Shown here piece after piece: positions 2,932-55,144 of a DNA stretch of 64,000 nucleotides. Origin of the DNA: a virus. Lineage: Duplodnaviria > Caudoviricetes. Each line of letters opens with the position of its first letter. Within the stretch, counting starts at the first letter, position 1. Both the position numbers and the translations under genes were made by a program. The notes below the pieces were generated by a model that saw nothing but the letters and a program-made list of their open reading frames with translations, searched no databases and was not told the DNA's origin. The stretch spans positions 192,001-256,000 of the IMG/VR virus record IMGVR_UViG_3300021431_000076; one strand, 5' to 3'.

Positions 2932-3963
2932 ATGGAAAACACTGAAATCAAAAACGAACAGCAAGTCAATGAAAGAAAACCCTATTATCGTAAAAACAAC
3001 TATCGTCGTCATCAATGGAGAGAAAAGCCTCAGGCTATTTCTTATATTAAATCCTTTGATAACTTCAATGATGGTTTTACTGAAGTGATTCGGTTCAATC
3101 CTGAATTGAAGAACTATTGTGGTGATTTTGGTTCTTATGATGCAGTAATTGCTTCTATGACTAAAGCAATTAACGATAACATTCCTTCTCCAAACAATAT
3201 TAATTATCCTAATACTCTTTCTCTTAGTATTGATGCTAATGAGGTAGGATTTAAGACAGATACTAATATTGCTCTTGGTTGGAGAATACGTTATTCTTAT
3301 AAAGAAGCTAAGACTTATTATAACTTTCGTGTAACCTTCATCTCTGTTCCTGTATACAAGCATAGTACCATCTCTGATATGGTAGCAGCAGGTTGGAAGA
3401 AGCTTATTAAGAATAACAATCGTCAGAATCGATATTGGAATCATATTGAAGGGAAAGATAATTCTGAAGAATCCAATGAAGGTTTTAAAGTAAAAGAACT
3501 TATTGGAGAACAAAAGATCAATACTTCTCATCCTATGAGTATGCCTAAAGCATATAATGAAGATGAATATGATGATGTTGAAGATTCTGTAGCAGATCAT
3601 CAAGAACTTCATACTGTTGATAATACACCTGAAGAAGAATTAGTAGAAGCTTCTACTCAAATTGAATTTGATGATACTTCTATTGTTGAAAATGAATCTT
3701 CAGGCGTAGAAGATATTATCAAAGAAGAAGCAACTGAAAAGGTAGAAGAAGTATCTACTGGTTTTGTAGAATCTGGAGATGGTATTTCTAAAACTGCTAA
3801 TCCCAATGTATTTGTTGTTGACTACAAAGGTGAACGTCGTGTCATTAATGTAGAAGAAGATGATATCCCTTATGGTGATATGCTGATTGACAAAGAATCT
3901 GGAAAGATTAGCTTTGCTGACGGTACAGTTTTTAACTATAAAGACTTACAAATAATGCATTGA
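2932..3963 (+). CDS. hypothetical protein, acidic C-terminal half
   Basis: ORF 2884..3963; AAGGAG RBS favours the ATG at 2932. Confidence 0.7.
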   Translation: MENTEIKNEQQVNERKPYYRKNNYRRHQWREKPQAISYIKSFDNFNDGFTEVIRFNPELKNYCGDFGSYDAVIASMTKAINDNIPSPNNINYPNTLSLSIDANEVGFKTDTNIALGWRIRYSYKEAKTYYNFRVTFISVPVYKHSTISDMVAAGWKKLIKNNNRQNRYWNHIEGKDNSEESNEGFKVKELIGEQKINTSHPMSMPKAYNEDEYDDVEDSVADHQELHTVDNTPEEELVEASTQIEFDDTSIVENESSGVEDIIKEEATEKVEEVSTGFVESGDGISKTANPNVFVVDYKGERRVINVEEDDIPYGDMLIDKESGKISFADGTVFNYKDLQIMH

Positions 3964-4001
3964 TATGCATCTCCTTAATTCATAATAAACACCTCACAAC
4001 T

Positions 4002-4029
4002 CCCCCTAGAGCTTAATTGCTCTAGGGGG
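4002..4029 (+). terminator. terminator hairpin
   Basis: ccccctagagc-ttaatt-gctctaggggg followed by a T-rich tract. Confidence 0.7.
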
Positions 4030-4046
4030 TGTTATTTGTTTTCCGA

Positions 4047-4058: not shown

Positions 4059-4105
4059 AGTCTAGACTAAATAAAAGACTATGAGAAAGGAGGAAATTGA
4101 TATTT

Positions 4106-7100: not shown

Positions 7101-10100
7101 CAGGTAGAGGAAAAGTTTTAGATAATACTACTGGTTATAAAGGTTATCTATTACATGAAGGAGATTCTGTAATTCCTTCTTATTTAAATCCATCAAATGC
7201 AGGAAGAGGAAGAGTAACATCTCAATCTTTAGAATCTCAAGCAAGAAATGAAAATGCACTAAAAGACAGATATATGTCTGGTGGTTCTATTCCATTTGTT
7301 GGCACTTTTGCTCAAGGTGGAACAGTTAGAAAAAAAGTAGGTGGATGGATAGATGATCTTATAGATTCAGAAAATAAAGAAGATAACACTCCTGATTTAG
7401 ATAAGCAAAAGAAATCAAGAGGATTTTTCCACAACTTCAGAAATTGGCTTACTGGTTACAATGAGCCAGAGTTCAATGAAGATCAAATTAAAATGCAAGA
7501 ATTTATCAAAAATATAGTAAATAGTGCTACTAAAGCTGCCATTGAAGCTAATGGTGGTATGTTTGAAGATGAAGAATCAAAAGGAAAATCTATAACTCAA
7601 GCTGGCTTTGAAATGGCTGGTAAATTAAGGAAAAGCAAAGTCGATCTTAATACTAATGAATTCCAAGAAGCATTAAAAGAAGTTCTCGCTATGAGTGAGA
7701 ATATCAAAGATCCAGATTTTAGAGATACACTTCAATTTATTTTAAATACTGCTGGTTATAAAGGTGAATTTGATACTGTAGATGAATCTAAGAAAGTAAG
7801 AAGATCAAGAAGAAATAATCTATTTGTCGGTGTAAATCAATTTATGGATACTGCTTTTGGTATTGACTCTCAAAAGGCAATTAAAGAAGCAGATAAAACT
7901 ATAAGAAAGAATCTACCAGAACTTGCTAAAGGTGGTACTCTTGGTGCTCTATTAAGTACAGTTCTTCCTCTTGGTGGACCTTTAATGGGTGCACTTGTTG
8001 GTGCTGGTGCTTCTGTATTAACTAATAGCAAATCGTTCCAATCTTATATGTTTGGTTCAGAAATAACAGATAAAGATGGAAATGTAATAGATAGAAAAAA
8101 TGATGGTATCGTATCAAGAAAAACTGTAAAAGCTATTCAAAGATATATGCCTGATGCTAAAAAATATGGTATCACAGGTGCAATAGCAGGTCTCGTTCTT
8201 CCCTTTGGTCCACTTGGTGGTTTGATGCTTGGTGCTGGTGCTTCTTTCTTAAAGAACAACAGCAGATTCCAGGAATTCATGTTTGGTGAAGAAGGAGGCT
8301 TAATCAATAAGGATAGAAAAGAAAGAATCAAGAAAGCTCTTCCAAATATAGGTGTGGCTACACTAGGAACGTTATTCCTCGGACCTTTTGGTATCGTAGG
8401 TAACGCTATGCTTGGTGCTGGTTTAGGTATTTTATCTACCACAGAATCATTTAAACGTATTATGCTCGGTGCAAAAGACAAGAATGGCGTAAGACGTGGT
8501 GGTTTAGCTGATATTATTAGAAGACAAATTACAGATCCATTTAAGAAGACAATGGATGATGCTAAAACAAGATTAGCCGCTTGGTTTAAAGACGATCTAT
8601 TTAATCCTTTAGCTAAAACTATTAAACCTCTTGCTAGAGTAATGACTGGAGAAGTTAAAGATATAGCAAGAAAAGCAGCTGAGTTTGTTTTTGGCAAAAA
8701 AGGTGAAAATCAAAAATCAATATTTGGTAGATTAGGTCTCAAATCTGTAGATAGAATGCTAGGATTAGTAAGAAATGCTGGAGGACTTGGAGCCTTTGGT
8801 TTACAGCAAATTGGTAATGTAATAGGTAAAGGTGCCCATTGGGCTGAAAAGAATATTGGTCAAAAAATGGAAAAACGAGCCTTTAGAAAAGGCTATATTG
8901 AAGGAGATACTACTGCTCAAGAAAGATTAGATAGAGCAGAAGAATTAGGTGTAAATGCAGATGATGCAAATCAATATGCTCTTGGTGGTCTAGATAAAAC
9001 TATTGCGAATATTTCTGCTGGACCAGATTCAAAAACTAAATTACAAGATCTATCAACTGCTATTAGTATGATGCAAGATCATCTTAATGGTACTCCGCAA
9101 AACATTAATCGACAAATTGTAGCTGAGAAAGATAATATAGAATCAATGTCAGAGAAAGCATATCAAGATTATATGAGAAAGAATCCAAACGCTAAGAATC
9201 CTCATGATATGCATAGAACTATAGAAAAATTCATTAATAAGATGAATAAAATTGGTGCTTCTGATGATTTCGATTTAGAACTTTCTAAAGGAGAAATTGC
9301 TAAAGAATTAGCAGATTCTGATCTTCCAGAAGAAGTAAAAGATCAACTCATGGCAGTCTGGGAAGAATCTGGTTCTAACATAGATAAATTAAGAAAAAGC
9401 AAAGCTCAATTAAATATCAATGGTGGTAAAGATGCATATAACTATATGGAAAGAATGGCTGCAAATGCCCTTGGCTATGAAGGAGAACTAAGTGACGAAC
9501 AAAAAGAAAGAATTAAAAAGATTCTTCAAAATCCAAACGCATTAGAAGCAATAACTCAAGAGCAAAGATTAAATAAAGAAAAAGAAGCTAATGATGATTC
9601 TGTTAATTCGCAATTAAAGAAACAACTCGACAATCCTGCAGATCAACTTATAACAAATAATCAGGAATTACAGATCAATGAATTGCAAGTAATGAATACA
9701 ACTCTATCTTATATTTCTAATCTATTAGCTGCTACATCTCAAGAAGATAAAGATAAGATAATTCAAGAATTCCAAAAAACAATGGATAAATATAATGGTG
9801 TTGCTAAGAGTGAAAAATTACAGAAGACCATAGAAGAATCTAAAGCATATGCTAATTCTATAGCAGCTCAAAAAGACAAAGATGATTTCAATACTGATAT
9901 AGGAGCAGGAGCAAATCAAAAAATTTACAATGATAGAAAATTCAATAGAGAAAATGCTTATCAAAATGACAGATTTGTTGAAATTATCAATAGAGAAAGA
10001 GAAGAAAAAGCTTATCTTGGTGAAAACTTAGATAAATATATAGAATCTATAGAACCAGAAGTATGGAAATTAGTTATAAACGAATCAACGTGGGATAAAT

Positions 10101-13100
10101 TTAAAAGAAATGCCAAAGAATTAGCTAAAGATCTTAGTGATGATATCACTCATATTTCTCAACAAGGTTATGCTGCTTTACTTACTGCAGATTTATATGC
10201 ACAAGATAAAGTTAATAAAGCTGCTAATTATGTGATGGATAATAAAGATGAAATAGCAAATGCTCCATTAGTAATCTTAAATGGTGTATTAGATGCAATA
10301 GCAAAATTAGGAGATAGTGGTATAGAACAGTTGGCTCAATTAAATGCTAAACTCCATGGAGATTTTTATGAAACTAAAGAAAACGCTATAACAAGAACTT
10401 TAGGAGAATTCAAATCATTCGATTCTTTATCTGATGATGAAAAAGCTGAATTAACTGGAAAAGATAAACCAGAACCTAATTCTATTAAAGCCATGAATAA
10501 CACTAAAACAACTTCTATGGTTGAAGATAATGGAAGAGTTGTTTTTGGTGATCCTAATGAAAACAAAAAACAAGAAGAAAATAAAAATCAAGAACAACCT
10601 AAAAAAGACGAAGAACCTAAAGAAGAACCTAATGCTCTTCATAGAATTCAAGAAGGTATAAAAGAAAAAGCAAAAGAAACTAAAGATGAAGTTAAAGAAA
10701 CTCTTAAAGACGAAGTAGAGAAAATAAAAGAAACTACTAAAGAATTAGTGGTAGAGCCTATAAAAGATGCAGCTACTAAAGTAAAAGATGAATTAGAATC
10801 ATTAGCAAATAGTATAAAAACTACTGCTCAGGTATTTTCAAAATTTGGAAATCCAATAGAAAATGTTGAAAAAGATACACATGATCAAATAGATAATAAA
10901 ACTGATAAAAACCCTCCAATAGCTACATATGGATTACCATTCTTTGATACATTTGCTGCTGGTGGAATAGCAGCAGCAGCTGCTAGTAGTGGTGGTGGAT
11001 CTCTAATGGGATCAATTTTCAAAGGTGCTGTTGGTGGAGCATTAGATCATTTCACTGGCGGTGATTCAAAAGATAAAAAAGAAGATTCTAATAATACAAA
11101 AGAAACTCAATCTAAATCAACTCCACAATCACCAGATATATCTTCTAATGATATAAAATCTGTTGGTGGATTAATAAGTTCATTAGTAAGTAAATCATCT
11201 GGTGGAGCTCCAGATATAAATTCAAAAGACAATATTTCTTATACATCTGATGCTGATGGTAATCCAATTGCTATCACTAAAGGTCCAGATGGAACTCCAA
11301 TGAAAGTTCGTAACAAAGACAATGCAATGATAGAAGAGAAACATAAAAAAGAATTCTCATTCAAAGAAAGATCAGCAAATGCATTAGAAGCAATTGCAGC
11401 TTCTATTGGAGCAAAAGCAAAAGATGCGGCTGGTACATTGGGTAAAGGTGCTGCTAAAGCTGGTGGAGGATTATTTGGAGGATTATTAGATTCTATTGGC
11501 GGAATATTAAATATGCTATGTTTAGGTTTGCCAGTAGGAACAATGCTAATTGGTGCTCTAAAATCATTACCAGGAAAAATATTCAAGTTCTTTGGTGGAA
11601 AGCTATTTGATAAATTCAAAGATAAATTACCTGATTCTATTTCTAAGAAAATAGGAAAAATGCTAGGCAGAGATGAAGATGACGAAGATGATGAGGATGA
11701 AGACGACGAGGATGATTCAAAGTCAAAAGATAAGAAATCAAAAAAAAAGAAAGATAAAAAGAAATCTAAGAAAGATAAAGATGATGAAGAATCTAATTCT
11801 ATAAAATCAGAAGCTAAGAAAAAGAAGAAGAAAAATGGTAAGAAAAAGAAAAAAGGTAAAAAAGCTGATTCTGTAGAAAATAATGAAAATGAAAATCAAC
11901 AAGAAGAATCTAATTCTATAAAATCAGAGGCTAAGAAAAAGAAGAAGAAGAAAGGTAAGAAATCTAAAAATAAGAAAGCAGACTCTGCAGATTCTGTAGA
12001 AAATAATGAAAATGAAAATCAACAAGAAGAATCTAATTCTATAAAATCAGAGGCTAAGAAAAAGAAGAAGAAGAAAGGTAAGAAATCTAAAAATAAGAAA
12101 GCAGACTCTGCAGATTCTGTAGAAAATAATGAAAATGAAAATCAACAAGAAGAATCTAATTCTATAAAATCAGAGGCTAAGAAAAAGAAGAAGAAGAAAG
12201 GTAAGAAAAAGAAACAGCAATCAACTAAATCAAATAATAAAGATAGTAAAGAAGAATCTAATTCTATAAAATCAGAAGCTAAGAAAAAGAAAAAGAAGAA
12301 AAAGGATAAGAAAAAGAAATCAAAAGGATCAAATTTAGTAAATGGAGGATTAGCAGCTTTATCCACTGCTGCTAGTTTAATAGCTACAAATGATAATTCA
12401 TTATTTGGTTCTATATTAGGATTTGATGATGAAGATGATGAAAAAGAAGATGACGCTAAAGATTCTGATGAAAATTCAGAAGATGATGATGAAAAAGAAG
12501 CTGAGAAACCTAATCATTATGCTAATATTTTCAATAATTTAAGTAAGATTATAGATAACAGTGATAAAGAAGAAGTAGATATAGATCCTTATATGGCTAT
12601 AATGCAATCTATAAATTCTATTTTACTTGGTGACGAAGAAGAAGAAAATGACGAAGATGATGACGACGAAGAAGAAGAAGAGGAAGAAGAAGTCAAAAGT
12701 AAAAAGAAAAAGAAGAAAAATAAAAAGAAATCTAAAAAAGAAACAAACGCAATCAAAGAAGAAGCTAAGAAGAAGAAGAAAAAGGGTAAGAAAAAGGCAG
12801 ACTCTGCAGATTCTGTAGAAAATGATGAAAATCAACAAGAAGAATCTAATTCTATAAAATCAGAGGCTAAGAAAAAGAAGAAGAAGAAGAAGAAAGGTAA
12901 GAAATCTAAAAATAAGAAAAAGAAAAAATCAAAATCTAGAAGTTCAATAGCAAATATAGCTGAATCAGGAGGAGCTGCTGCAGCAATTATTGATATATTA
13001 GGACCTGATGATGAAGAAGAAGAAGAAGAAAATGATGGTTCAAATTCAATTAAAGATATGATTGAAGAAGCTGATTTTTCAACTGGAACAGAAAAAGCAA

Positions 13101-16100
13101 AAGGGCGCAAAAAGAAAGGCAAAGCTTCAGAAGTAGCATCAAAAATAGATGAAATGACAAATTCTTCAAAAGCAGAGCAAAAATCTGCTGTTCAAATGGC
13201 TATTGGAAAAATAAAATCAACACTACAGACTGTTATTTCTGCAGTTGGAAAATGGTTCCCTGGTAAAGAAACAGCAACTGCTATAGATACTTTTTGTAGA
13301 AAGATTATAGGTAAAATAGCAACAGAACAAGGTGAACAGGCTATTGCTAAAGCTGTTGCAAAACAAGCAGCTTCTGCATCTGCTGGTGCAGCTACTATGG
13401 GAATTGGTACTGCTGTAGTTACTATTGGATTTGCTGCTACTGAATTTATTCATGGTTTTAATAATGCATCTGAATTGTTTAAAATAGCTGAAGCTGTTGT
13501 AACATTTGGAATGAGAACCTTAGCTGGTTTAGTTTGTGCAATTCATGCTGCACTCACTTCTATTCCTGTTGTTGGTATAGCAGTAGCTATATTTGTAGAT
13601 CCGGATAAATTATTAGAAGATGCTATAGATATAATTGGTCCTGCTGTTGGTATAACTAGACAAGATCTAGATAATTTGCGCAAAAGTGGACAAGATAAAA
13701 TTGATCAAGATGTAGCAGATGCTGCTGAACAAACAAATCTAAGCCCATCATATACAGATTCTATTAAAGCAGCTGCAGGTTCTGCAGTTGGTATGGTAGT
13801 ACAAGGAGCATCAAGTTTTGCTGGAATACTTGCTGATAAAGCTAAAGATGCTATGTCTAGTATTGGAGATGCTACAGGAAAAGCAATGAGTTTTGCTAAA
13901 GATACAGCAGCTGGTGTTGGTAACTGGATAAAAGAAAATGCATCTAAAGGTTATCAATTCTTATCAGATACTGCTTCTTCTGCATGGCAAACTGCTAAAA
14001 ACTATGGTTCAAAGGCATATGATACTGTTGCTAGTGTTGTAAGCGGTGCTAAAGATAAATTCTCTGGACTAGTAAGTTCTGCTAAAAGTTATGCTTCAAA
14101 TTTATTTGGTAAAGGTAAAAATGATCAAACCGATAATGGTTTATTTGGAACTGGAATACATTCTCAATTAGATCCTAAAATAGCAGGAATGCCATTCAAT
14201 AAAGCAGGAGATACAGAAAAACAAACTGTTAGAGATTCTGCTTGTGGTCCAATGGCTATGGCTAATGCTCTTGAGGGTTTGGGATATTCTATAAATGATA
14301 CAGATATACTCAAAAAGACTTTAAATGGTAAAGAAACTAATGGTGGTATGCCAGATTATGTATTATCTGAATATGCAAATAGACAAGGAGCCTCTACTAG
14401 AAATATTGGAACAAGTTATCAAGATCTAAAGGAATCTTTAATGAGTGGAAATCCATTAGTTTTAATGGGTCAAAATAATATAGGTGAGACAGATAAAGAT
14501 CCATTTGCTGAGAATCCTCACTATGTGACGGCTCAAGGTATAGATAAAGATGGATATGTAACAATCAAAGATCCAGAATCATATAATCCAATTAAGAAAT
14601 ATAAATTATCCGATATAGCTAAAACAACTACACTTGCTACTGAAGTAGGAAAAGGTAAATTTGGTAGATCTAGATATGGCAAAGGACCAACATTAGATGA
14701 GAATCCACCATTTGGTTCAATTGCTGCTGAATTGGCTAAGAGAACAGGTTCAAAACACCCCGAATTCTTCTGGGCTCAAATGATGCATGAAACTGGTGGA
14801 CCAGAAAACGAAAAGAAATGGAATGCTAAACATCCAGAATATGGTGATATTCATAACTATGGTGGATTTACATGGTATTCTGGTATGGGCGAAGAATATA
14901 AAGGACCTCCTCGTCCAAAGAGTGAAGGAGGATATTACGCTAAATTCAAATCAGATGCTGAATATGCTGATATGGCATTCAGAAAAGTCTATAAATCATA
15001 TGCAAATGAATTGGCTAAATGCAATACTGTAGAAGAATTTGCTGCAGTTCTTAAGAAACATGGATACTATGATGATACTGAAGCAAACTATGTAGCATGC
15101 CTTAATAGATGGCTAAATCAATATAAAGGAAAACTTGGCAATATTTCTGGTATGAGTATATCTGGAGATGCATCTAACACTTCTGCATCATCAAATGGAA
15201 CTTCTTCTACTGGAGGTAAATTTGGTGATAATAATGGTCAAAGTGTAGCTGGTTTCTTCAAAGCTATTTCTGATTCTTCAAAAATAATCAAGTCTAGTAT
15301 AGAAGCTGGAACTAAAAGAATATTTGGTAAAGGTAAAAGTAAATGGGGTAGAGAAAAATCAAATGGTACTGGAGAAGATATATATGCTTATCTAAAATCT
15401 AAAGGATTATCAAATCAAGCTATAGCTGGAATAATGGGCAACTGGTACGCAGAAAGTAAATGGAAATCATCTCTAGTTGAATGTAAAAAACCACCCTGGA
15501 GAGAAATCAGTTCTGATACAATGACTATAGACGGTAACACTGGATATGGTTTAGCTCAATGGACTTATATAACTAGACAGCAAAAATTACATGAATTTAT
15601 GAAATCAAAAGGTTTACAAGATTCAGATTACAAAGGTCAAATAGATTTTGTGTTCTCTGGACAAGATGGAGATATAAATCCTGTTATAAAATCTATGGAT
15701 AAAATGTCTCCAGAAGAAGCAGCAAGAGAATTTTTAGATAAATATGAACATAAAATATTAGATACAAAAAATACAGAGAGGTATCATCTATCAGAAAGAC
15801 AAAAGGCTGCAAAAGAAGTATTTGAAAAACAAGGAAAAGGCATGAGTGGTGTTAGCTCCTTAACAGGATCCTCCTCAGGATCATCTTCTAATGCTTCTGC
15901 AGATGTTCAAGATGAAAAAGAAACTGGAATTTTTGGAGCATTAGCTCAATTAGCAAAAAGAGTAGGATCTATTATCAATATTTTTGGTAGTGGAGATAAC
16001 GGTAGTTCTGGTGGAGGTAGTAATAGTATTGGTGGAGGAGCAAATGTAACAGAAATTGCCGATAAAATCATAAAAATGGCTAATGCCTATGCAAATTCCC

Positions 16101-19100
16101 CAATAACATATGCGATGACAAATCCTGTAGCTGTACCTCCAGCCAAAGGATCATGTGATTGTTCAGGAATGGCAATGTCTTGCTATAAAGCTGGTGGAAT
16201 AGATATAACTAGAACTGCAGATACTCAATATGAATTTTTCAAGAAACATAATGCAATATACAAAGGCGATATTAAAAGTTTACAACCTGCTGATCTGGTA
16301 TTTACAAGAGATTCTAGTGGTCAAATAGATCATGTATTTGTATACATTGGTAATGGAAAAGCTGTAAATATGGGTCAGAATCATAGAGAGCGTGGAAATT
16401 TAGCAGGATTAAATTCTGCAGGTGGAGATGCTGTCTATTATAATGGATGGGAAAAAATTCAAGCTGGTATAGATTATCATAAAGGTGGAGCAGAATTTGG
16501 TAGCTTAACTAAACTTTGTTCTGCATTAGGCCTTGGATCTTCATCTTCTGGAGGATATCATGGCGGAGATAAGAGATCAAAGACTACTAGAATTATTATA
16601 CACCATACAAGTGGTTCTAAGACAAGTGATCCAGATCCATCAGCAGCAGAAATCAATAAATGGCATACCGCTCCTCCAAGAAATTGGAATTGCATAGGAT
16701 ATCACTATGTAATTCGTAAAAATGGTTCAATAGAAAAAGGTCGAAATGAAGATGAAATAGGTGCTCACGCAGAAGGGGCTAATAATGATTCTATTGGTAT
16801 TCATGTTGGTGGGGAATTCATGTATTTCAAACCAACTGAAAAACAGATAGAATCTCTTATCAAATTGATACAACAACTTTGCAAGAAATATAATATTCCT
16901 ATAGATCGTAAACACATTTTGGGTCATAGAGAAGTAGGTCAAACTGATTGCCCTGGGGATAATCTATATAATCAATTAGATTCTATAGTTGCTAAAGCAG
17001 CTGGTAGCGGTAAAGGTAAATATAGATTTGGTAGAGGCAAACCAAACGTACCAAGTCTAATAGAAAAGAAATCAAATAGTTTTGGTAAAGGAAAATCAAA
17101 ATATGGTAGAGCTGGATATCTTAATTCAACTGGAAATGTTGGATTTGCCAATTATGACTATTTAAAATCAAACACAATCAATCCTCCTACTAATAATTCA
17201 GATTATAAATTCACAAATACAGATTTAACTCAAAAGCATTTAGATGCTGCTCTTAAAGGAGAGACATATCAAAGTCGTAAAGATCCTATTACTGGTAAAC
17301 TTCTAACAGCTAAAGATATGGAAACTGCTGCAAAAGCAGGTGTAACTCAAAATGTTAAAAAAGAAGATATCAAATCTCTAGAAGAATGGAATAAAGCTAA
17401 AGAAGAAGGAAGAGAAGTTCAAGTATCAGCTCCAGAAAATTCTGTAATTGATATAGCTGAACAAGGTAAACAAGAATCTCAAACTAATTTAATGGATCAA
17501 TTCTTTGGTGGTGTTGGAGAAAAATTAAATGCAATAGAACAAAAATTAGCTCCTATTAAATCTGGAATTCTAAGTAAACTTGGATCAGTTATAACAGAAA
17601 AATTTGGCAAATTCTCTAATCTAATTGGAGATCCTTTAGGAATGTTTAAAGGATTCTTTGGTTCAAAAGATAATTCATCTTCTTCAAGTGCTGATGGTTC
17701 ACATGGTGGTGGAGGAGGAACCTTTAATGGTGATGCTACAGCTATACCAGCTACAGGTTCTGCTGCTGCTGCTTTAAAGAAAGCCCTCAATTGTGAAATT
17801 ACTAGTCAATTTGGTCCACGTGATGGAGGAGTTCACCATGGTATAGATTATGGTATTGGTACAGGAACTCCTGTTCCTACTGTAACTGATGGTGTAATTG
17901 ATGATATAGGATCTCAAGGTGGAGCTGGATATGGTAACTATGTTGTCGTAAAAGATAAGAAAGGTATGTATCATATCTATGCACATTTAAGCAAAAACGA
18001 TCTAGCTAAAAAAGGCGATTCAGTTAAAGCTGGTCAAATTATAGCTAAATCTGGTCATAGTGGTCATTGTATTCCAGATGGTCCTAATGGATCACATTTA
18101 CACTATGGAATCTATAATAATCCTAATTGTGCTGCTGGTGACGGATGCATTAATCCAAATTCTTATAAAATAGATGGATTGAGCTCTTCAGGTCAAGGAA
18201 AATATGGTAGAGGTAAATTAATCAAGATAAATCCTGTCAAAACTAAAGGTTCTGATAGAGGTGGAGTCGATACAAAGAAATATGTTCCTAAGAGTGGTAG
18301 AGGCAAATTCAAATCTACTGGATTAGAAGATCTAGATATTACTAGAACTGCTACATATCCAGATTTCCCTAAAGAAGCTAAAAGTCCAGATAACAATTTT
18401 GGTATATCTGATGAGATGATCAAACAATCTAAATTTGGTCAAGGTAAATATGGTAGAGGATTTGATCTAAATAGTGTATTAAACGTACTAGGAACAATAG
18501 CACAATTTGCAAATCTTAATAGGAATCCATTTATTGTGGGTGGTGGATTTGCTGGAAACAATGCTCAACAGAAACCACAGAATAATATAAAACAAAATCA
18601 AAGCAAAAAGAAAGAAGTAGATAAGAAGCTCATAGCTCCTAATGGATTGCAATATACACAAAATGATATTGATTATATACTCAAGAACTCTGATAAATTT
18701 GGTGGAGCTAAAACTATAGATGATGCTATAAAGATTCTAGAAAAAGACAAAAAATATACAGAAAAACAAGAAGACACTAAGAAACAGATTGCTCCTAATG
18801 GATTGCAATACACTCAAAATGATATTGATTATATACTCAAAAATCCTAACTTATTTAATGGGGCTAAAACAGAAGAAGATGCTATTAAGATTCTATCTAA
18901 AGATAAGAAATATACCGAGAAACCAAAAGATACTAAGAAAGAAGAAAAGAAAACTGCGACTCAAGAACAAAAAGAAACAGCTCTTAAAGAATATAAAAAA
19001 CGAATAGAAACATTCTCCAATGTGCCAGTAGCTCAGCAGAGATTGATGTTGCAAATGGGTCTTGGTCCAAAAGTTCCTCAAATTCTATTAGAAGAAGAGG

Positions 19101-20707
19101 AAAAAGAAAAACAACAAACCAAAGAAGAAAAGAAAGAAAATAATGCAATAGCTCAAGAAGTAAAGAAAGCAAAAGAAGAATCTAAAGATAAAGATGCTAA
19201 ATCTGCTCCTAATGGATTGCAATATACACAAAATGATATTGATTATATACTCAAGAATTCTGATAAATTTGGTGGAGCTAAAACAGAAGAAGATGCTATT
19301 AAGATTCTATCTAAAGATAAGAAATATACAGAAAAACAAGAAGACACTAAGAAGGAAGAAAAGAAAACTGCGACTCAAGAACAAAAAGAAGCGGCTCTTA
19401 AAGAATACCAAAGGCAAGTAGAAACATTCAAGAATGTTCCAATAGCTCAACAAAGACTAATGGCACAAATGGGTATAATTCCTCAAGTACCAGATATACT
19501 AAAAGAAGAAACAGAGCAAAATAAAGAAAATAAAGATGTATTAGAAAAGCAAAAAGAGAAAGCTAAAACAATCACAAAAGAAAAGAAAGACTTAGGACCT
19601 TTTGGAGGTTTTGCTAATTCAATAGATAAACTAGAAGAAGTATTTGGTAGAATCTTTGGTAAAAAGAAGAAATCAAATAAAAAAGATGAAAAGAAAACTG
19701 GATCTGAATCAATAGATAAAGCTCAGAAAGAAGCAAAAGAAGCTAAGAAAGCAGAAGCTTCCATAGATAATAAAATCAATGAGAAAGATGCTCAAGCTAA
19801 GAAAAATAAATATAAAGAATACTTTGATAAGATCAATGATGATACTCCAATAGAAGATGTAAAAGAAATGATCAAAGATATTCCAAAAGATGGTATTTCT
19901 AAAGATAATATTATTGATTGGGATAATGATGATAAGAGTGTAATCAGAGCTAAAGCAAAAGCTCAATTAAAAGCTTATAATATCAAATTAGAAGAAGATG
20001 CTAAGAAGAAAGCCAATGAGAATAAAACTAAAAATGAAGAAATTAAGAAAGATCAAAATTCTATTACTAAAGCTCAAGATGATTCTAAATTTAATTTAGG
20101 ACAAGAAGGTTCTCATGGTGAAGGTCCTAATGGAAAGAAATATACAAACAATGATATAGCATACATACTCAAGAATTCTGATAAATTTGGTGGAGCCAAA
20201 ACAGTAGAAGATGCTATCAAGATACTAGAAAAAGATAAAAAATATACTGAAAAATCAGAAGAGGCTAAAAAAGATGATAAACCATCTCCAGATTCTACCG
20301 ACACTGGTAAAACGGAGAAGGGTGAAACTAAAGAAAACGAAAAATCTAAGGATGGGGTTACTACTTCCACACAAAAGTCTTCTCAAGAGGCTTCTCAGCC
20401 TGTTTCTACTCAAGATAAGCTTGATATATTAATTGCAGCACAAAATAAGACTAATGAACTATTATCTGCTATACTCAATATGGCAACTAAAGCAGTAGAT
20501 GCTAAGCAAACAGATATTAAAGCAGCTGAAAAGAATACAAAAGCAAAAGATAAGAAGAAACTTGATGAAACTGCTGCTATGACTAAATTGAATTATTTCT
20601 ACAATAATTCTATGAAGAATAGTGGTGTAGATACAAGCTTCTTTAATCCTGATTCAGGAGATTTCATAGATATATCTAAACGTATGCAAAATATAGCTTC
20701 AATGTAA
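4106..20707 (+). CDS. giant tape-measure-like / tail-associated multi-domain peptidoglycan hydrolase (~5530 aa)
   Basis: Helical N-terminus with glycine-rich hydrophobic repeats and FAxGG motifs. Domains: C39-like peptidase (SACGPMAMANAL...HYV, ~14150-14640); glucosaminidase-like (AQMMHETGG...LKKHGYY, ~14700-15130); phage tail lysozyme (AIAGIMGNWYAES...GYGLAQWT, ~15360-15840); NlpC/P60 (DCSG...HVFVYIG, ~16040-16520); Zn amidase_2 (IIIHHT...GYHY...GAHA...HREV...CPG, ~16575-16990); M23 (HHGIDY...HLHY, ~17790-18170). Start is either TTG 4097 or ATG 4106. Confidence 0.85.
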   Translation: MASNSIMDYLKNVGESVKFAAIESVTEKTPNLRKVFSENNKKYIQEVYKDVNQHRQELNMIDRIRNATVFKQISVGWDNLKDSIKTGKFKDDSRSTGFDEMEMMFAMMGDDFLGGDSDLIESEMNGEETGSTNEHRVRGIPEITKGDALVATASATATRNAASSISKAIVRSAELTDMTARKSTNLQLRALQQQANILSGGFQQLSSSLHTINQFNEQVVLTHAQNSRMFYEQATQLAQERNAILKEMLEMQRETFGATMRSNLSSDANDLSKMSKIFDKEKGFDLRAYMNLMQKRMKETPIGMVMMSIKMLPMMIGEVVQNPLHYIAKMGIDSIIDNSLKKAIYNIDQSISGMISTGLTKLANYGKDKATKNTLLGQIAGFFGLRDENTRLSAVDTSKYNKEAMQWNGIAQKALVEVIPGHLRRIEAALTGEAERVFDLQSGKWSTMKNVANVEKDIDRKVFKETFSKEKNQLLNMMNFNSREDKRGWINALDNFFKGVKNRGMIDYNHIREKSSEYGDNENIVKAIAYLIHSGGLDSSQIFNLTNKINEGNAKKAAMIRNLNPSNQSLVTEAVNNSYNAKWAAGTGAQYKTITNEDGSTRTYQKADKNGRWTSLPINDLSKLTDTRGYTLYDYQYNIMNLLMDIRSGGGFGSGGGSGRNKRSKQKTIPSTFVPVQTGNPYEYTDEELDDLKTSPNRQHAANLVQKAQAKSESKRLLLHPDKSGLDEEVKLPFSIEDIKNANEEQLAAIISHMNFAGQTSKEYRANKKVDSSGGIFGNLKSAASGLGIDSLDSFMEDMQEATSIADKFNVVGEALRSMTSAPQKILTSVLTEADRFMYEFMFGNPAGTEKDENGQPIEGFFGKVTNEFGKTMNNLNNKFNEWFKDTFKKGAGGIAGFFKGVLEDYFDIDIDKKVENAERHVKKYANKVKKGALSAGADLFGIAKEAVLGTAQDMGIYEPDEEENQSSPPPTTAYRGIRKYDSKYGLGIVGPGEKIISPGRGKVLDNTTGYKGYLLHEGDSVIPSYLNPSNAGRGRVTSQSLESQARNENALKDRYMSGGSIPFVGTFAQGGTVRKKVGGWIDDLIDSENKEDNTPDLDKQKKSRGFFHNFRNWLTGYNEPEFNEDQIKMQEFIKNIVNSATKAAIEANGGMFEDEESKGKSITQAGFEMAGKLRKSKVDLNTNEFQEALKEVLAMSENIKDPDFRDTLQFILNTAGYKGEFDTVDESKKVRRSRRNNLFVGVNQFMDTAFGIDSQKAIKEADKTIRKNLPELAKGGTLGALLSTVLPLGGPLMGALVGAGASVLTNSKSFQSYMFGSEITDKDGNVIDRKNDGIVSRKTVKAIQRYMPDAKKYGITGAIAGLVLPFGPLGGLMLGAGASFLKNNSRFQEFMFGEEGGLINKDRKERIKKALPNIGVATLGTLFLGPFGIVGNAMLGAGLGILSTTESFKRIMLGAKDKNGVRRGGLADIIRRQITDPFKKTMDDAKTRLAAWFKDDLFNPLAKTIKPLARVMTGEVKDIARKAAEFVFGKKGENQKSIFGRLGLKSVDRMLGLVRNAGGLGAFGLQQIGNVIGKGAHWAEKNIGQKMEKRAFRKGYIEGDTTAQERLDRAEELGVNADDANQYALGGLDKTIANISAGPDSKTKLQDLSTAISMMQDHLNGTPQNINRQIVAEKDNIESMSEKAYQDYMRKNPNAKNPHDMHRTIEKFINKMNKIGASDDFDLELSKGEIAKELADSDLPEEVKDQLMAVWEESGSNIDKLRKSKAQLNINGGKDAYNYMERMAANALGYEGELSDEQKERIKKILQNPNALEAITQEQRLNKEKEANDDSVNSQLKKQLDNPADQLITNNQELQINELQVMNTTLSYISNLLAATSQEDKDKIIQEFQKTMDKYNGVAKSEKLQKTIEESKAYANSIAAQKDKDDFNTDIGAGANQKIYNDRKFNRENAYQNDRFVEIINREREEKAYLGENLDKYIESIEPEVWKLVINESTWDKFKRNAKELAKDLSDDITHISQQGYAALLTADLYAQDKVNKAANYVMDNKDEIANAPLVILNGVLDAIAKLGDSGIEQLAQLNAKLHGDFYETKENAITRTLGEFKSFDSLSDDEKAELTGKDKPEPNSIKAMNNTKTTSMVEDNGRVVFGDPNENKKQEENKNQEQPKKDEEPKEEPNALHRIQEGIKEKAKETKDEVKETLKDEVEKIKETTKELVVEPIKDAATKVKDELESLANSIKTTAQVFSKFGNPIENVEKDTHDQIDNKTDKNPPIATYGLPFFDTFAAGGIAAAAASSGGGSLMGSIFKGAVGGALDHFTGGDSKDKKEDSNNTKETQSKSTPQSPDISSNDIKSVGGLISSLVSKSSGGAPDINSKDNISYTSDADGNPIAITKGPDGTPMKVRNKDNAMIEEKHKKEFSFKERSANALEAIAASIGAKAKDAAGTLGKGAAKAGGGLFGGLLDSIGGILNMLCLGLPVGTMLIGALKSLPGKIFKFFGGKLFDKFKDKLPDSISKKIGKMLGRDEDDEDDEDEDDEDDSKSKDKKSKKKKDKKKSKKDKDDEESNSIKSEAKKKKKKNGKKKKKGKKADSVENNENENQQEESNSIKSEAKKKKKKKGKKSKNKKADSADSVENNENENQQEESNSIKSEAKKKKKKKGKKSKNKKADSADSVENNENENQQEESNSIKSEAKKKKKKKGKKKKQQSTKSNNKDSKEESNSIKSEAKKKKKKKKDKKKKSKGSNLVNGGLAALSTAASLIATNDNSLFGSILGFDDEDDEKEDDAKDSDENSEDDDEKEAEKPNHYANIFNNLSKIIDNSDKEEVDIDPYMAIMQSINSILLGDEEEENDEDDDDEEEEEEEEVKSKKKKKKNKKKSKKETNAIKEEAKKKKKKGKKKADSADSVENDENQQEESNSIKSEAKKKKKKKKKGKKSKNKKKKKSKSRSSIANIAESGGAAAAIIDILGPDDEEEEEENDGSNSIKDMIEEADFSTGTEKAKGRKKKGKASEVASKIDEMTNSSKAEQKSAVQMAIGKIKSTLQTVISAVGKWFPGKETATAIDTFCRKIIGKIATEQGEQAIAKAVAKQAASASAGAATMGIGTAVVTIGFAATEFIHGFNNASELFKIAEAVVTFGMRTLAGLVCAIHAALTSIPVVGIAVAIFVDPDKLLEDAIDIIGPAVGITRQDLDNLRKSGQDKIDQDVADAAEQTNLSPSYTDSIKAAAGSAVGMVVQGASSFAGILADKAKDAMSSIGDATGKAMSFAKDTAAGVGNWIKENASKGYQFLSDTASSAWQTAKNYGSKAYDTVASVVSGAKDKFSGLVSSAKSYASNLFGKGKNDQTDNGLFGTGIHSQLDPKIAGMPFNKAGDTEKQTVRDSACGPMAMANALEGLGYSINDTDILKKTLNGKETNGGMPDYVLSEYANRQGASTRNIGTSYQDLKESLMSGNPLVLMGQNNIGETDKDPFAENPHYVTAQGIDKDGYVTIKDPESYNPIKKYKLSDIAKTTTLATEVGKGKFGRSRYGKGPTLDENPPFGSIAAELAKRTGSKHPEFFWAQMMHETGGPENEKKWNAKHPEYGDIHNYGGFTWYSGMGEEYKGPPRPKSEGGYYAKFKSDAEYADMAFRKVYKSYANELAKCNTVEEFAAVLKKHGYYDDTEANYVACLNRWLNQYKGKLGNISGMSISGDASNTSASSNGTSSTGGKFGDNNGQSVAGFFKAISDSSKIIKSSIEAGTKRIFGKGKSKWGREKSNGTGEDIYAYLKSKGLSNQAIAGIMGNWYAESKWKSSLVECKKPPWREISSDTMTIDGNTGYGLAQWTYITRQQKLHEFMKSKGLQDSDYKGQIDFVFSGQDGDINPVIKSMDKMSPEEAAREFLDKYEHKILDTKNTERYHLSERQKAAKEVFEKQGKGMSGVSSLTGSSSGSSSNASADVQDEKETGIFGALAQLAKRVGSIINIFGSGDNGSSGGGSNSIGGGANVTEIADKIIKMANAYANSPITYAMTNPVAVPPAKGSCDCSGMAMSCYKAGGIDITRTADTQYEFFKKHNAIYKGDIKSLQPADLVFTRDSSGQIDHVFVYIGNGKAVNMGQNHRERGNLAGLNSAGGDAVYYNGWEKIQAGIDYHKGGAEFGSLTKLCSALGLGSSSSGGYHGGDKRSKTTRIIIHHTSGSKTSDPDPSAAEINKWHTAPPRNWNCIGYHYVIRKNGSIEKGRNEDEIGAHAEGANNDSIGIHVGGEFMYFKPTEKQIESLIKLIQQLCKKYNIPIDRKHILGHREVGQTDCPGDNLYNQLDSIVAKAAGSGKGKYRFGRGKPNVPSLIEKKSNSFGKGKSKYGRAGYLNSTGNVGFANYDYLKSNTINPPTNNSDYKFTNTDLTQKHLDAALKGETYQSRKDPITGKLLTAKDMETAAKAGVTQNVKKEDIKSLEEWNKAKEEGREVQVSAPENSVIDIAEQGKQESQTNLMDQFFGGVGEKLNAIEQKLAPIKSGILSKLGSVITEKFGKFSNLIGDPLGMFKGFFGSKDNSSSSSADGSHGGGGGTFNGDATAIPATGSAAAALKKALNCEITSQFGPRDGGVHHGIDYGIGTGTPVPTVTDGVIDDIGSQGGAGYGNYVVVKDKKGMYHIYAHLSKNDLAKKGDSVKAGQIIAKSGHSGHCIPDGPNGSHLHYGIYNNPNCAAGDGCINPNSYKIDGLSSSGQGKYGRGKLIKINPVKTKGSDRGGVDTKKYVPKSGRGKFKSTGLEDLDITRTATYPDFPKEAKSPDNNFGISDEMIKQSKFGQGKYGRGFDLNSVLNVLGTIAQFANLNRNPFIVGGGFAGNNAQQKPQNNIKQNQSKKKEVDKKLIAPNGLQYTQNDIDYILKNSDKFGGAKTIDDAIKILEKDKKYTEKQEDTKKQIAPNGLQYTQNDIDYILKNPNLFNGAKTEEDAIKILSKDKKYTEKPKDTKKEEKKTATQEQKETALKEYKKRIETFSNVPVAQQRLMLQMGLGPKVPQILLEEEEKEKQQTKEEKKENNAIAQEVKKAKEESKDKDAKSAPNGLQYTQNDIDYILKNSDKFGGAKTEEDAIKILSKDKKYTEKQEDTKKEEKKTATQEQKEAALKEYQRQVETFKNVPIAQQRLMAQMGIIPQVPDILKEETEQNKENKDVLEKQKEKAKTITKEKKDLGPFGGFANSIDKLEEVFGRIFGKKKKSNKKDEKKTGSESIDKAQKEAKEAKKAEASIDNKINEKDAQAKKNKYKEYFDKINDDTPIEDVKEMIKDIPKDGISKDNIIDWDNDDKSVIRAKAKAQLKAYNIKLEEDAKKKANENKTKNEEIKKDQNSITKAQDDSKFNLGQEGSHGEGPNGKKYTNNDIAYILKNSDKFGGAKTVEDAIKILEKDKKYTEKSEEAKKDDKPSPDSTDTGKTEKGETKENEKSKDGVTTSTQKSSQEASQPVSTQDKLDILIAAQNKTNELLSAILNMATKAVDAKQTDIKAAEKNTKAKDKKKLDETAAMTKLNYFYNNSMKNSGVDTSFFNPDSGDFIDISKRMQNIASM
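11786..12900 (+). repeat. intragenic repeats encoding EESNSIKSEAKKKKKK
   Basis: Unit gaagaatctaattctataaaatcaga at about 11786, 11903, 12026, 12149, 12251 and 12838; 123-bp period across the middle copies. Confidence 0.9.
18634..20250 (+). repeat. four ~45-aa repeats (APNGLQYTQNDIDYILKN...AIKILxKDKKYTEK)
   Basis: Near-identical DNA copies at about 18634, 18790 and 19204, plus a diverged copy at about 20123. Confidence 0.9.
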
Positions 20708-23183: not shown

Positions 23184-23256
23184 AATAAAGATAATACCTG
23201 GAATTTCAGGTATTATTTTTTATCTTATTTTTTACTTATACATAATCAAGAAAGAG

Positions 23257-23985
23257 GTGATAATTATCAAAACTAGAAAACAAAAGAAAAATCTTTATGA
23301 TTCTAAATACTCTCATATTCCTAGAGATTATAATGAGAGATTATCATGGATGTATGACACACTTCATATTACTCCAGACAAAGAGAATTATATTCTTCAA
23401 GCAAGAGATCAATATATTCAAAGTATGGCATTTAGTCCAGAAATATTAGTTATATTATATGAAGAACCAGAAGGTTCTCCAAGACCAAGAGCTAGATTTG
23501 TTAACAAAGGAAATCTATCTGCTAGTGCTAAAGCAAATCCAGGATTTATACAAGTATATTCTATTACTGGTGCTGCAGATAGAAAGTTTATGAAACAATT
23601 TATATCAGATAATGATTTTTTGCAATTAGATCAATTAATATATACTCCATGTAATATAGAATTCGATGCATTCTTTAAAACACCAAATTCATTTAATAAC
23701 ACAGATACATTTTTAGCAGAACTTGGATGTATACGACCGATATCAAAACCAGATTTTGATAATATTGAAAAGAAATATGCTGATATGTATAATGGAAATG
23801 TTTGGATAGATGATGCTCTAGTAGTAGATGCGGTAGTTAGGAAATACTATTCTATTCTTCCTAGAGTTGAGATTCATCTTAGATTTCTAAACATGCTTTA
23901 TAACAAATACCAATACAAATCTATATCTAATAGAGTAGATAGCACTAACGTAAATTATTTCAATACTATATATAAAAAGGAATGA
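23257..23985 (+). CDS. rusA: RusA-like Holliday junction resolvase
   Basis: PEGSPRPRAR N-terminal motif; KPDFDNIEKKYADMYNGNVWIDDALVV catalytic pattern. Confidence 0.75.
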   Translation: MIIIKTRKQKKNLYDSKYSHIPRDYNERLSWMYDTLHITPDKENYILQARDQYIQSMAFSPEILVILYEEPEGSPRPRARFVNKGNLSASAKANPGFIQVYSITGAADRKFMKQFISDNDFLQLDQLIYTPCNIEFDAFFKTPNSFNNTDTFLAELGCIRPISKPDFDNIEKKYADMYNGNVWIDDALVVDAVVRKYYSILPRVEIHLRFLNMLYNKYQYKSISNRVDSTNVNYFNTIYKKE

Positions 23986-24359
23986 TTTACATGTTAAAAG
24001 TTTATCCATCTGGTTTAGATTTAAATATGAAGAATAATATTCTAACAGCTCAATATATGAAACAAAAACTAACACGAATGGGATATCTAACAACCCAGTC
24101 TATTTATAATACTATAAAGGAGTTCTTTCCTCAGTTTAATGAGAATGCTATAGGATATATGAATACAGAAATAACTATATCATTATCAGGAGAAACTATA
24201 TATCAAATAAGAAGTATATTAGTAGAGTTATTTAATAGATTAAGTAGTAAACTAAGTGGAATAGTTAGTTTAGATGAACAGAATATATTGATCAGTAGGC
24301 CTGAGTTATTTTATACTATTCAAACAGTTAGTCCAAACATATATATAATCAGAATATAA
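23982..24359 (+). CDS. hypothetical protein
   Basis: ORF overlapping the rusA stop (ATGA coupling). Confidence 0.6.
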   Translation: MIYMLKVYPSGLDLNMKNNILTAQYMKQKLTRMGYLTTQSIYNTIKEFFPQFNENAIGYMNTEITISLSGETIYQIRSILVELFNRLSSKLSGIVSLDEQNILISRPELFYTIQTVSPNIYIIRI

Positions 24360-24584
24360 GATAAGATTTGGCGAGCCTTATCTTAGTTTTGTTTGACATA
24401 ATGAATCCTCCTAAAATACTCCTTTCATGATGTTTGTTCGTTGTTTCTCCTTTTTCATAAAACTTCCCTAATACACTCCCTAGGTAGAAATACCTAGGGA
24501 GATTCTATGTTTTAGGGAAATTTACTGTGATAGAAGATAGTCAAAAATATGCCAATTTTGGCCATTTAATCTTTTTTTTAGTTA

Positions 24585-24599
24585 TATATTATAGAGGTG
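24585..24599 (+). promoter_or_regulatory. early-type promoter
   Basis: tatattat-agaggt-G. Confidence 0.7.
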
Positions 24600-24636
24600 A
24601 TTTAGTCATATAATCTATTGAAGGGAGGAATATTTT

Positions 24637-25398
24637 ATGGCTAATAAAAAGAAAGCTGAAGAAGCTAAATCACAGCCTGATAACGTTAAGGTTATCATTC
24701 AACCAGATGGAACCAAATACTCTCTGGGTTTTCTTGATGAATTAGATGCTTTGGTTTTGGCTATATATGAAAATAAATTGCCGGATCAAGATAAAGCAAA
24801 AATTGATCAAGACCCAGTCTTCCTGAGTAAACTGGAAAGTTATATCAGGAACGGCATCATTCAATTGGATATGCCACCAAACAATATCCAGTTGAATGAA
24901 AATCAGAAGAAGATCAGAGAATATTGGTTCAAAGATGCATCTGAAGATGCAATCAGAGAACAGGTATTGGGCACTGAAAGGTACCAATACTGGAAGCAAA
25001 CTGGTTCTATTGAACCACCCCCACAAAAAGCACAGGCATCTCCTGCTTCTGAAAATATGGCAGAAGCAAATACCACATTAAATGTGGAAACAAACATTCA
25101 CGTTGAAAAAGAGGAAAAGACAGAGGAGGAAAAAGTTATGTTTAACAACACTCAGAACAATCAGAATGGTCAGCAGGCACAGGCACAGCAGCAGAATGGT
25201 CAGCAGCAGCAGGGCAATATCCTGACAGATGCTCTTGGCGCAGTGGATGAGTTCACTGATCATTGGTATGGGAAAGCCGCTATTGCCGGTGGTGCGGCAT
25301 TCGCAACCTATAAGTTCCTTAGCAGTAAGTCTGAAGATCCAGACTATAGCTCTGCTGGGGATGATGCAGTATCTGACTATGGCGGAAATTTCTTCTAA
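24637..25398 (+). CDS. early hypothetical protein with Q-rich linker and C-terminal hydrophobic segment; internal in-frame start at 25138
   Basis: GGGAGG RBS; second RBS gaggagg before ATG 25138; higher-GC codons in the 3' part. Confidence 0.7.
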   Translation: MANKKKAEEAKSQPDNVKVIIQPDGTKYSLGFLDELDALVLAIYENKLPDQDKAKIDQDPVFLSKLESYIRNGIIQLDMPPNNIQLNENQKKIREYWFKDASEDAIREQVLGTERYQYWKQTGSIEPPPQKAQASPASENMAEANTTLNVETNIHVEKEEKTEEEKVMFNNTQNNQNGQQAQAQQQNGQQQQGNILTDALGAVDEFTDHWYGKAAIAGGAAFATYKFLSSKSEDPDYSSAGDDAVSDYGGNFF

Positions 25399-53619: not shown

Positions 53620-53650
53620 TATCCCTAGGGTTTAAAACCCTAGGGATAAT
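53620..53650. terminator. bidirectional terminator
   Basis: tatccctaggg-tttaaa-accctagggata between convergent genes. Confidence 0.75.
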
Positions 53651-54896: not shown

Positions 54897-55144
54897 GTTT
54901 CATTCTCCTTCTATATAATATAGAAACTTGTCTTATATGATTGTTTTTGGCATAAAACCACCCTGGAGTCGATAGACTCCAGGGTTAGAATTATTCTAGA
55001 AGGAGAGAAAATGAATCATTTTAAAATGTATTAATATCAATATTATGCTAAAAATAGCAGTGGGATAACCACTTCTATTTCATTACTTTATGTTAGCCTA
55101 TTACATTATTAAAAACATTTATATATTAAACAAAATTTCAGTTA

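Follow-up and report, generated by a model that had tools for sequence, protein, structure and literature searches.

What keeps a pyrimidine-rich, noncoding tract in place between two genes of a giant phage? The tract in question follows the gene p125 in a 64,000-nt stretch of DNA (the window), which comprises bases 192,001-256,000 of a 332,775-bp IMG/VR phage record (IMGVR_UViG_3300021431_000076; G+C 31%). A preliminary description had listed here an AT-rich hairpin, five CU-rich motifs, a hairpin in terminator position followed by an early-type promoter and the next gene, strings of Shine-Dalgarno (SD)-like sequences and ATGs on the minus strand, and a 14-nt complement to the ribosome-binding site (RBS) of another gene, and had read them as an RNA acting against SD sequences. 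The elements are present as listed: the AT-rich hairpin is formed by TAAGATAAG and CTTATCTTA at 24357-24385, the CU-rich motifs lie at 24407-24411 (CCTCC), 24418-24427, 24446-24459 (TCTCCTTTTTCATA), 24463-24469 and 24476-24480, the last of them (CTCCC) being the 5' arm of the second hairpin, and the complementarity to 2911-2924 is perfect over 14 nt. The best reading of the locus, to which we give slightly better than even chances, is a late small RNA of about 165 nt, transcribed from the plus strand and exposing anti-SD and anti-start motifs. The earlier proposal thus stands in outline, as a conserved noncoding plus-strand element with exposed anti-SD sequence, whereas the targets that it named, the folding back onto the next gene and a genome-wide system do not.

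Conservation of the tract in related loci

We fetched 17 metagenomic loci with p125 homologues (75-98% identity) and added one locus from IMG/VR (L003) and two distant ones (L008 and L040), giving 16 distinct tract sequences with the window included. The clade with at least 75% identity holds 14 distinct sequences, and its adjoining gene is 73-91% identical at the DNA level. In the alignment of p125 and its downstream region across these 14, the longest invariant run is the 25-mer at 24437-24461; the first, second and third codon positions of p125 are invariant in 61, 75 and 30% of cases, and the linker segments flanking the 25-mer in 14-25%. Judged from this alignment, the 25-nt core is more strongly constrained than the neighboring protein. 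Hitch-hiking with that protein cannot yield such an invariant run beside linkers and third positions as variable as these.

The remaining motifs differ in how well they are kept. The CCTCC and a CAT lying 7-8 nt 5' of it are retained in four lineages with a varying spacer, L057 having CCGCC instead. Motif 2 of the preliminary description (ACTCCTTTCA) is found only in the window, L003, L043, L046, L048, L049 and L059, that is, in the window's own subclade, and is replaced by CTCC-free sequence in the lineages of L050, L052 and L054. The C-rich motif that follows the core appears elsewhere as UACCCCU, UUCCCCCU or CUUCCUC, with its C-richness retained throughout. L008 and L040, whose p125 homologues are about 35% identical, show a like layout after that gene, with CCUCCU, a GU-rich spacer, UUUCUCCUUU and a hairpin; in their DNA, it is the core segment TTTCTCCTTT that follows the GU-rich spacer. 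A covariance model built without these two loci recovers both in the syntenic position (28 bits, E = 0.02). Three relatives lack the tract (L004, L009 and L026) and have a hairpin straight after the stop codon, and in the distant relatives L034-36, convergent genes follow the stop of the p125-like gene. Every lineage has a different gene beyond the second hairpin, so the conserved module ends there; identity to L003 likewise drops off right after 24503.

An exact-pattern scan of IMG/VR and GTDB genomes with the core matched the known close relative alone. With no copy in a host, there is no support for the capture of an identical start from a host gene. The covariance model found no second CU core in the whole 333-kb genome; its weak matches there come from a common CCCTAGG-type hairpin family and are not further copies. 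No further relatives of the L008 clade were found in IMG/VR, and a scan of the whole window against Rfam gave no family (RsaE, RoxS, C4, DicF and others) at gathering score.

The signal is in this comparison with related loci and not in the number of motifs. The tract holds four clusters of antisense SD 5-mers, the highest count among 175 tandem intergenic regions, but the probability of at least one region reaching four clusters by chance is 0.72, and motif counting by itself is not significant. Under a strict rule (SD, 4-10 nt, ATG), the tract has one antisense site, which equals the background rate, and antisense SD density is similar in intergenic regions (2.9/kb) and in the antisense of coding sequence (2.2/kb). 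The 14-nt complement rests on the SD consensus and has an E value of 0.11 genome-wide (blastn-short). Enrichment of CTCC ahead of terminators, counted genome-wide, was rejected as a signal: 33 occurrences were observed against 15 expected from shuffles, but the GGAG-type complement reaches 27 and the CTCC excess comes from three to four loci. What sets the tract apart is its composition and length: among 90-nt sense-strand windows of the tandem intergenic regions, none is richer in pyrimidines (fraction 0.66-0.68 vs. 0.46 +/- 0.06), and the gap from stop codon to hairpin is 116 nt compared with a genome median of 9.5 nt.

Promoter motif, hairpins and a predicted open linker

The last codons of p125 contain a late-type promoter motif, AAACATATATATAA, ten bases ahead of the stop codon. 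Within it, AACATATATATA at 24336-24347 fits the late consensus of phage AR9, AACA-(6N)-TA/G, the last base of which is the start site (PMC5312081); as a motif match, this makes it a predicted promoter. AR9 has 13 late promoters inside open reading frames (ORFs) and produces late antisense and noncoding transcripts (PMC5312081), and TATATTAT, found here ahead of the next gene, falls within the AR9 early-promoter sequence (PMC5312081). Upstream regions in the genome under study are enriched for TATATTAT, for TATACTAT and for a[AG]ACA-N6-TA, the last occurring sense-upstream of genes 35 times against 13, with A preferred at -1 and GACA accepted as well. The likeness to AR9 thus covers the motif and its start at the last base, while the acceptance of GACA and the predicted status of the promoters set the present phage apart. 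At the locus itself, the late motif is present and kept at the nucleotide level in 16/16 tract-bearing loci, L008 and L040 included, and in 0/3 of the tract-less relatives. The last eight p125 codons show zero third-position changes in the clade of at least 75% identity, a further point in favor of the late promoter. Two other candidates were rejected, as neither is conserved in other lineages: a sigma-70 TTGACA at 24393, which also has a poor -10, and a TATACTAT motif at 24312-24319 inside p125. As a class, TATACTAT occurs upstream of genes 36 times in sense and 5 times in antisense orientation, and these occurrences suggest that it represents a third type of promoter in the phage.

The two hairpins, P1 and P2, are consistent with an RNA beginning at the predicted start. 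RNAalifold returned both hairpins with an open linker between them. We observed compensatory changes at two pairs of P1 and three pairs of P2, a total reached by 1/500 shuffles, and 98.9% of the alignment cells of P1 and P2 are paired (P2, 100%), compared with 37-48% when the partners are slid. The predicted fold of every lineage has a hairpin whose first base lies 1-3 nt from the predicted start, in L008 by means of a different partner sequence. The P1 of L050 contains one G.U pair, the minus-strand equivalent of which is C.A; together with the orientation of the GAAA loop of P2, this favors the plus strand. Unpaired probabilities predicted for seven lineage representatives were 0.70-0.97 for the CU motifs, 0.77-0.97 for module 1 (the CAU and CCUCC pair) and 0.70-0.95 for the core. 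The invariant 25-mer and the conserved CCUCC thus lie in a linker predicted to be open and combine the two properties of a seed motif, conservation and a predicted single-stranded state.

The P2 hairpin has relatives elsewhere. A family of the form CCCTAG(G/A)...C(T/C)CTAGGG has 10 members in the 333-kb genome, nine of them intergenic and several with GAAA loops; those in the window lie at 4004-4031, 24478-24499 and 53623-53645. In the two copies for which the strand of the flanking genes was noted (24478 and 69570), the GAAA loop is on the transcribed strand. These hairpins are probably the standard terminators of the phage.

We infer from these patterns how the unit may work. The late (non-virion) RNA polymerase of the phage would initiate at the AACA-N6-TA in the last p125 codons, at about 24347. 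The RNA of about 165 nt would open with P1 as a protective 5' hairpin, continue with about 90 unpaired pyrimidine-rich bases carrying CAU-N7-CCUCC, the invariant core UUCGUUGUUUCUCCUUUUUCAUAAA and the C-rich motif, and have the GAAA-loop hairpin P2 as its 3' end. Its exposed motifs would copy the anti-SD of 16S rRNA and the complement of AUG, and it would most likely pair in trans with initiation regions of phage or host mRNAs, with less translation late in infection as the outcome. Such an RNA would more likely start at its own conserved late promoter (24336-24347) than be processed from a 3' untranslated region (UTR), as had been suggested. The features are collected in Table 1.

Table 1. 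Features of the locus, with positions counted in the window
Feature	Position	Strand	Remark
p125 (122 amino acids)	23991..24359	+	Gene constantly upstream of the candidate RNA unit
Late-type promoter motif, aAACA-N6-TAa, AAACATATATATAA	24335..24348	+	In last p125 codons; predicted start A24347
P1, predicted 5'-terminal stem-loop	24350..24391 (core 24357-24385)	+	Extended by CAGAAU/GUUUUG pairing
Module 1, CAU-N7-UCCUCCU (anti-start and anti-SD)	24397..24412	+	Minus strand reads AGGAGGA-N7-ATG
Motif 2 of the preliminary description, ACTCCTTTCA	24418..24427	+	Not conserved
Invariant 25-nt core, UUCGUUGUUUCUCCUUUUUCAUAAA	24437..24461	+	25/25 columns invariant in 14 distinct sequences
Variable C-rich motif, CUUCCCU	24463..24469	+	4-9 nt 3' of the CAU of the core
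P2, 11-bp hairpin with GAAA loop	24476..24501	+	3' end of the unit; boundary of sequence conservation
Early-type promoter TATATTAT, SD GGAGG and start of downstream gene	24585..24639 (promoter 24585-92)	+	Outside the conserved unit

Several observations weigh against a late trans-acting RNA. The independent lineages sampled number only about five. The late motif overlaps conserved C-terminal codons of p125, and part of the conservation of the motif is thus due to coding. P2 has a strong stem and is trailed in the window by a weak U-rich tail (24502-24515), and in most lineages the U-tract after the stem is poor, the sequence there being AUUCUAUGUUUU, AUGAAUAUUG or similar with an offset or weak U-run. 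The conserved CAU-N7-CCUCC reads equally well as a minus-strand SD-N7-ATG start. Pairing of the core with initiation regions of the phage is stronger than that of shuffled cores (mean -13.2 vs. -10.6 +/- 0.6 kcal/mol), which speaks for the RNA. None of the predicted targets stands out, however: the best duplex, at -24.3, is only about 3 standard deviations past the minima of shuffled queries, and neither an outlier target nor a clear preference for an early or late promoter class was found among these regions. The RBS of the gene at 2932, named earlier as a target, is not conserved together with the core, as in the L043-bearing genome the match falls to an 8-nt SD with the core unchanged.

Alternative explanations

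A cis-acting element in the 3'-UTR of the rusA-p125 mRNA, working only within the operon transcript, seems to us unlikely, although it has more in its favor than the other alternatives. Such an element could affect stability or termination, load Rho at a C-rich and G-poor site, carry an anti-SD directed at its own operon or be an insulator. The tract does precede the first GC-rich hairpin after the p125 stop, hence must be part of operon transcripts, and its sense strand has C over G at 19:9. Two possible partners exist in the operon, the initiation region of p55 at -18.3 kcal/mol and a positionally conserved complement of 9-11 nt inside p125, AGGAGAAAC. The former, the best cis site, is unexceptional, however, lying within 1.4 standard deviations of the genome-wide mean for initiation regions (-13.2 +/- 3.6), and the latter is constrained by Gly-Glu codons. 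A cis-acting element would also leave unexplained the conserved late promoter and the hairpin at the predicted 5' end.

The insulator variant is the one put forward in the preliminary description, with the tract folding back to silence the next gene in read-through RNA. In silico, the SD of the downstream gene is indeed less accessible in read-through RNA than in promoter-initiated RNA (unpaired probability 0.10 vs. 0.73). Its main partner is a T-run at 24570-24581, outside the tract, and with the tract shuffled it is occluded nearly as well (0.23 +/- 0.14). Moreover, each lineage has its own cassette, with a different RBS, as the downstream gene, motif 2 lacks conservation, and the motif at 24413-24427, which had been thought to pair with that RBS, is confined to the window's subclade. 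In phage T4, the downstream RBSs of e (lysozyme), soc and I-TevI are occluded in read-through transcripts by a local and specific partner. The layout described earlier resembles these cases in its order of upstream sequence, promoter and RBS, which confines masking to long transcripts; the variable downstream gene, the unconserved partner and the similar outcome of shuffled controls set it apart, and occlusion of the T4 type was not found here.

The unit might instead act on the minus strand, which we regard as improbable. The tract there reads AGGGAAG-N4-ATG, AAGGAGA, ATG, AAAGGAG and TAGGAGGA-N6-ATG, and these strings could be stacked true starts (SD-N5-9-ATG) for mini-ORFs of 7-19 codons (MKKEKQR...), either leader-like or bar-like minigenes or what is left of the 5' end of an inverted gene. 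Two correctly spaced pairs of SD and ATG are kept despite varying spacers, every lineage has an SD-like G-rich motif 5-9 nt before a conserved ATG, and the plus-strand pyrimidine level of the tract equals that of the antisense of ordinary coding sequence. Neither strand of the unit has a conserved ORF, however. In the window, the minus-strand ORFs of the tract have only 15 and 16 codons; the first keeps MKKEKQR without synonymous change over eight codons and then shifts frame, its length across lineages being 7, 10, 11, 15 or 19 amino acids (aa), and the second ranges from 3 to at least 16 aa. The frame shift, the variable ends and the lack of synonymous change indicate constraint on nucleotides rather than on a peptide. 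The minus strand near the unit has no promoter motif in the window, and one lies within 160 nt in only 2/13 loci; upstream sequence on the minus strand is nonhomologous between lineages, and nothing lies downstream but p125 antisense. The strict-rule count at background level and the C.A mismatch in place of the G.U pair of P1 also speak against minus-strand starts. The bar minigenes of phage lambda are transcribed and pair a strong SD with an ORF of 2-3 codons. The minus-strand ORFs share the strong SD and very short frame, but differ in their 7-19 codons and in having no minus-strand promoter that we could find.

Other coding possibilities were rejected as well. The plus-strand mini-ORFs (9 and 14 aa) have no SD, and a 1-nt indel 5' of the core shifts their frame across lineages, so the core is not coding. 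An alternative genetic code giving longer minus-strand ORFs is contradicted by the plus-strand genes, including one of 5536 aa, that are open in code 11, and by the differing ends of the minus-strand ORFs between lineages.

Two recurrences had been claimed for the layout. The site at 54904 proved to be the real RBS (AAGGAG, spacing 8) of a minus-strand gene at 53652-54896, and that at 3961 consists of two antisense SD-like motifs that are present in close relatives and lost in the relative of the L043 lineage. With the CU core having no paralogue in the 333-kb genome, a genome-wide RNA control system fails at the sites named for it. Between the stop of the gene at 2932-3963 and its terminator (3964-4003), the minus strand reads GAGGTG-N6-ATG AAT TAA and AAGGAGA-N9-ATG, giving ORFs of 2 and 4 codons; given their loss in the L043 lineage, these starts are probably neutral. 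In a scan for ORF-less units running from promoter to hairpin, most CU-rich units were merely antisense to genes, and one further intergenic unit of similar grammar emerged outside the window, at genome positions of about 274,097-274,182, a likeness that speaks for the minus-strand explanation. This unit (L073; 82,097-82,182 on the scale of the window) is on the minus strand and has a late-type AAACAGAGTTGTA at the end of a gene, 86 nt rich in pyrimidines (C-G = +16) with three anti-SD 4-mers and no SD, and a CCCTAG-type terminator. In the relative G001, identity over the tract and terminator is about 90% despite a replaced upstream gene, and the AACA motif is not kept.

A variant of the trans-acting RNA, in which it imitates the 30S initiation site in a generic way, we likewise hold to be improbable. 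Its CAU-N(4-8)-CCUCC/CUUCCC modules would then stand for the anticodon of initiator tRNA and the anti-SD of 16S rRNA. Nearly all genes of the genome have strong RBSs of AAGGAGG type with a commonest spacing to the start codon of 7-8 nt, which the spacing of the modules would equal. One abundant late RNA would in that case clamp the SD and AUG of many mRNAs, shutting off early or host translation.

The absence of any RNA function, with the tract a DNA-level site for protein binding or recombination or a neutral hitch-hiker with the rusA-p125 block, is very improbable: the conservation boundary falls exactly at P2, beside a slot with lineage-varying genes, the block 23205-24503 is about 96% identical overall to the closest relative, and the motif count by itself falls short of significance, but both hairpins covary, the core is about 40 nt away from the recombination boundary and has no second copy in the genome, IMG/VR or GTDB genomes, and its invariance exceeds what hitch-hiking can give.

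Genomic setting, known systems and implications

The phage belongs to a clade of uncultured giant phages of the AR9/phiKZ supergroup from rumen and gut samples. Related contigs bear rumen or gut metagenome study labels, and its 724-aa virion protein has distant kin in Staphylococcus, Bacillus, Pseudomonas and Erwinia jumbo phages; megablast and distant blastn searches against cultured phages gave no meaningful match. For p125, we found no Pfam, PHROG or PDB fold match, and its AlphaFold model is confident (pLDDT 87.8) with an alpha/beta fold. The slot after P2 (24503-25449 and its equivalent in L043-L059) is a cassette hot-spot, holding in the window a lineage-specific 253-aa gene (24637-25398) and elsewhere genes of 114, 75 and 247 aa (L043), 250 aa (L046), 201 aa (L051) or 111 aa (L058). 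In L034-36, a convergent virion-protein operon directly adjoins the slot position. In L027 (about 8895-8980), the p125-like gene is followed in the slot by a sequence whose end, ...GAGTTCAAGTCTCGTCTCTCGCACCA, resembles a tRNA T-arm, acceptor stem and CCA. Farther upstream, the 5536-aa ORF (4097-20707) has a truncated homologue in L070 with precomputed matches to Peptidase_C39_2, Phage_lysozyme2, NLPC_P60, Amidase_2 and Peptidase_M23, which suggests a giant multidomain cell-wall hydrolase or virion protein.

The closest parallels in design are small RNAs of low-GC Gram-positive bacteria with C-rich or UCCC motifs, namely RsaE/RoxS and other Rsa RNAs (PMC2790875) and LhrC (PMC4132741). Like these, the candidate would be a short RNA with several unpaired SD-complementary C/U motifs between hairpins and a terminator hairpin at its end, and RBS occlusion would be its expected action. 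It differs in having no sequence or Rfam relationship to them, in being phage-encoded, in the AR9-type late promoter motif within the preceding gene, and in joining its CUCC/CCUCC to CAU, whereas theirs are UCCC motifs in loops. In Staphylococcus aureus, an anti-SD (UCCCCUG) in the 3'-UTR of icaR mRNA pairs with the 5'-UTR of the same mRNA (PMC3868564). The tract shares with icaR the placement of an anti-SD motif between stop codon and terminator, but among the initiation regions of the operon none emerged as an outstanding, conserved partner, and the unit has its own promoter motif. Among jumbo phages, ONT-cappable-seq of 201phi2-1 identified 11 small RNAs, one of them conserved across genera (PMC11512511). 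These too are short ORF-less units of unknown function, positionally conserved beside homologous genes; they are observed transcripts, mostly derived from 5'-UTRs and not described as anti-SD, whereas the present candidate comes from sequence comparison only.

Giant phages with their own RNA polymerases make small RNAs, none of them of known function. The unit after p125 offers a precisely bounded design for one, with a predicted late promoter, a 5' hairpin, an open body of anti-SD and anti-start motifs and a 3' hairpin. Should expression of the RNA not be borne out, the invariant core nonetheless marks a functional site, of DNA or RNA, that lacks an explanation, next to a cassette hot-spot. 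Should the RNA exist and block initiation regions, it would do as an RNA what translational repressors such as RegA of T4 do as proteins and would provide a simple handle on late translational control in uncultured jumbo phages of the rumen and gut.

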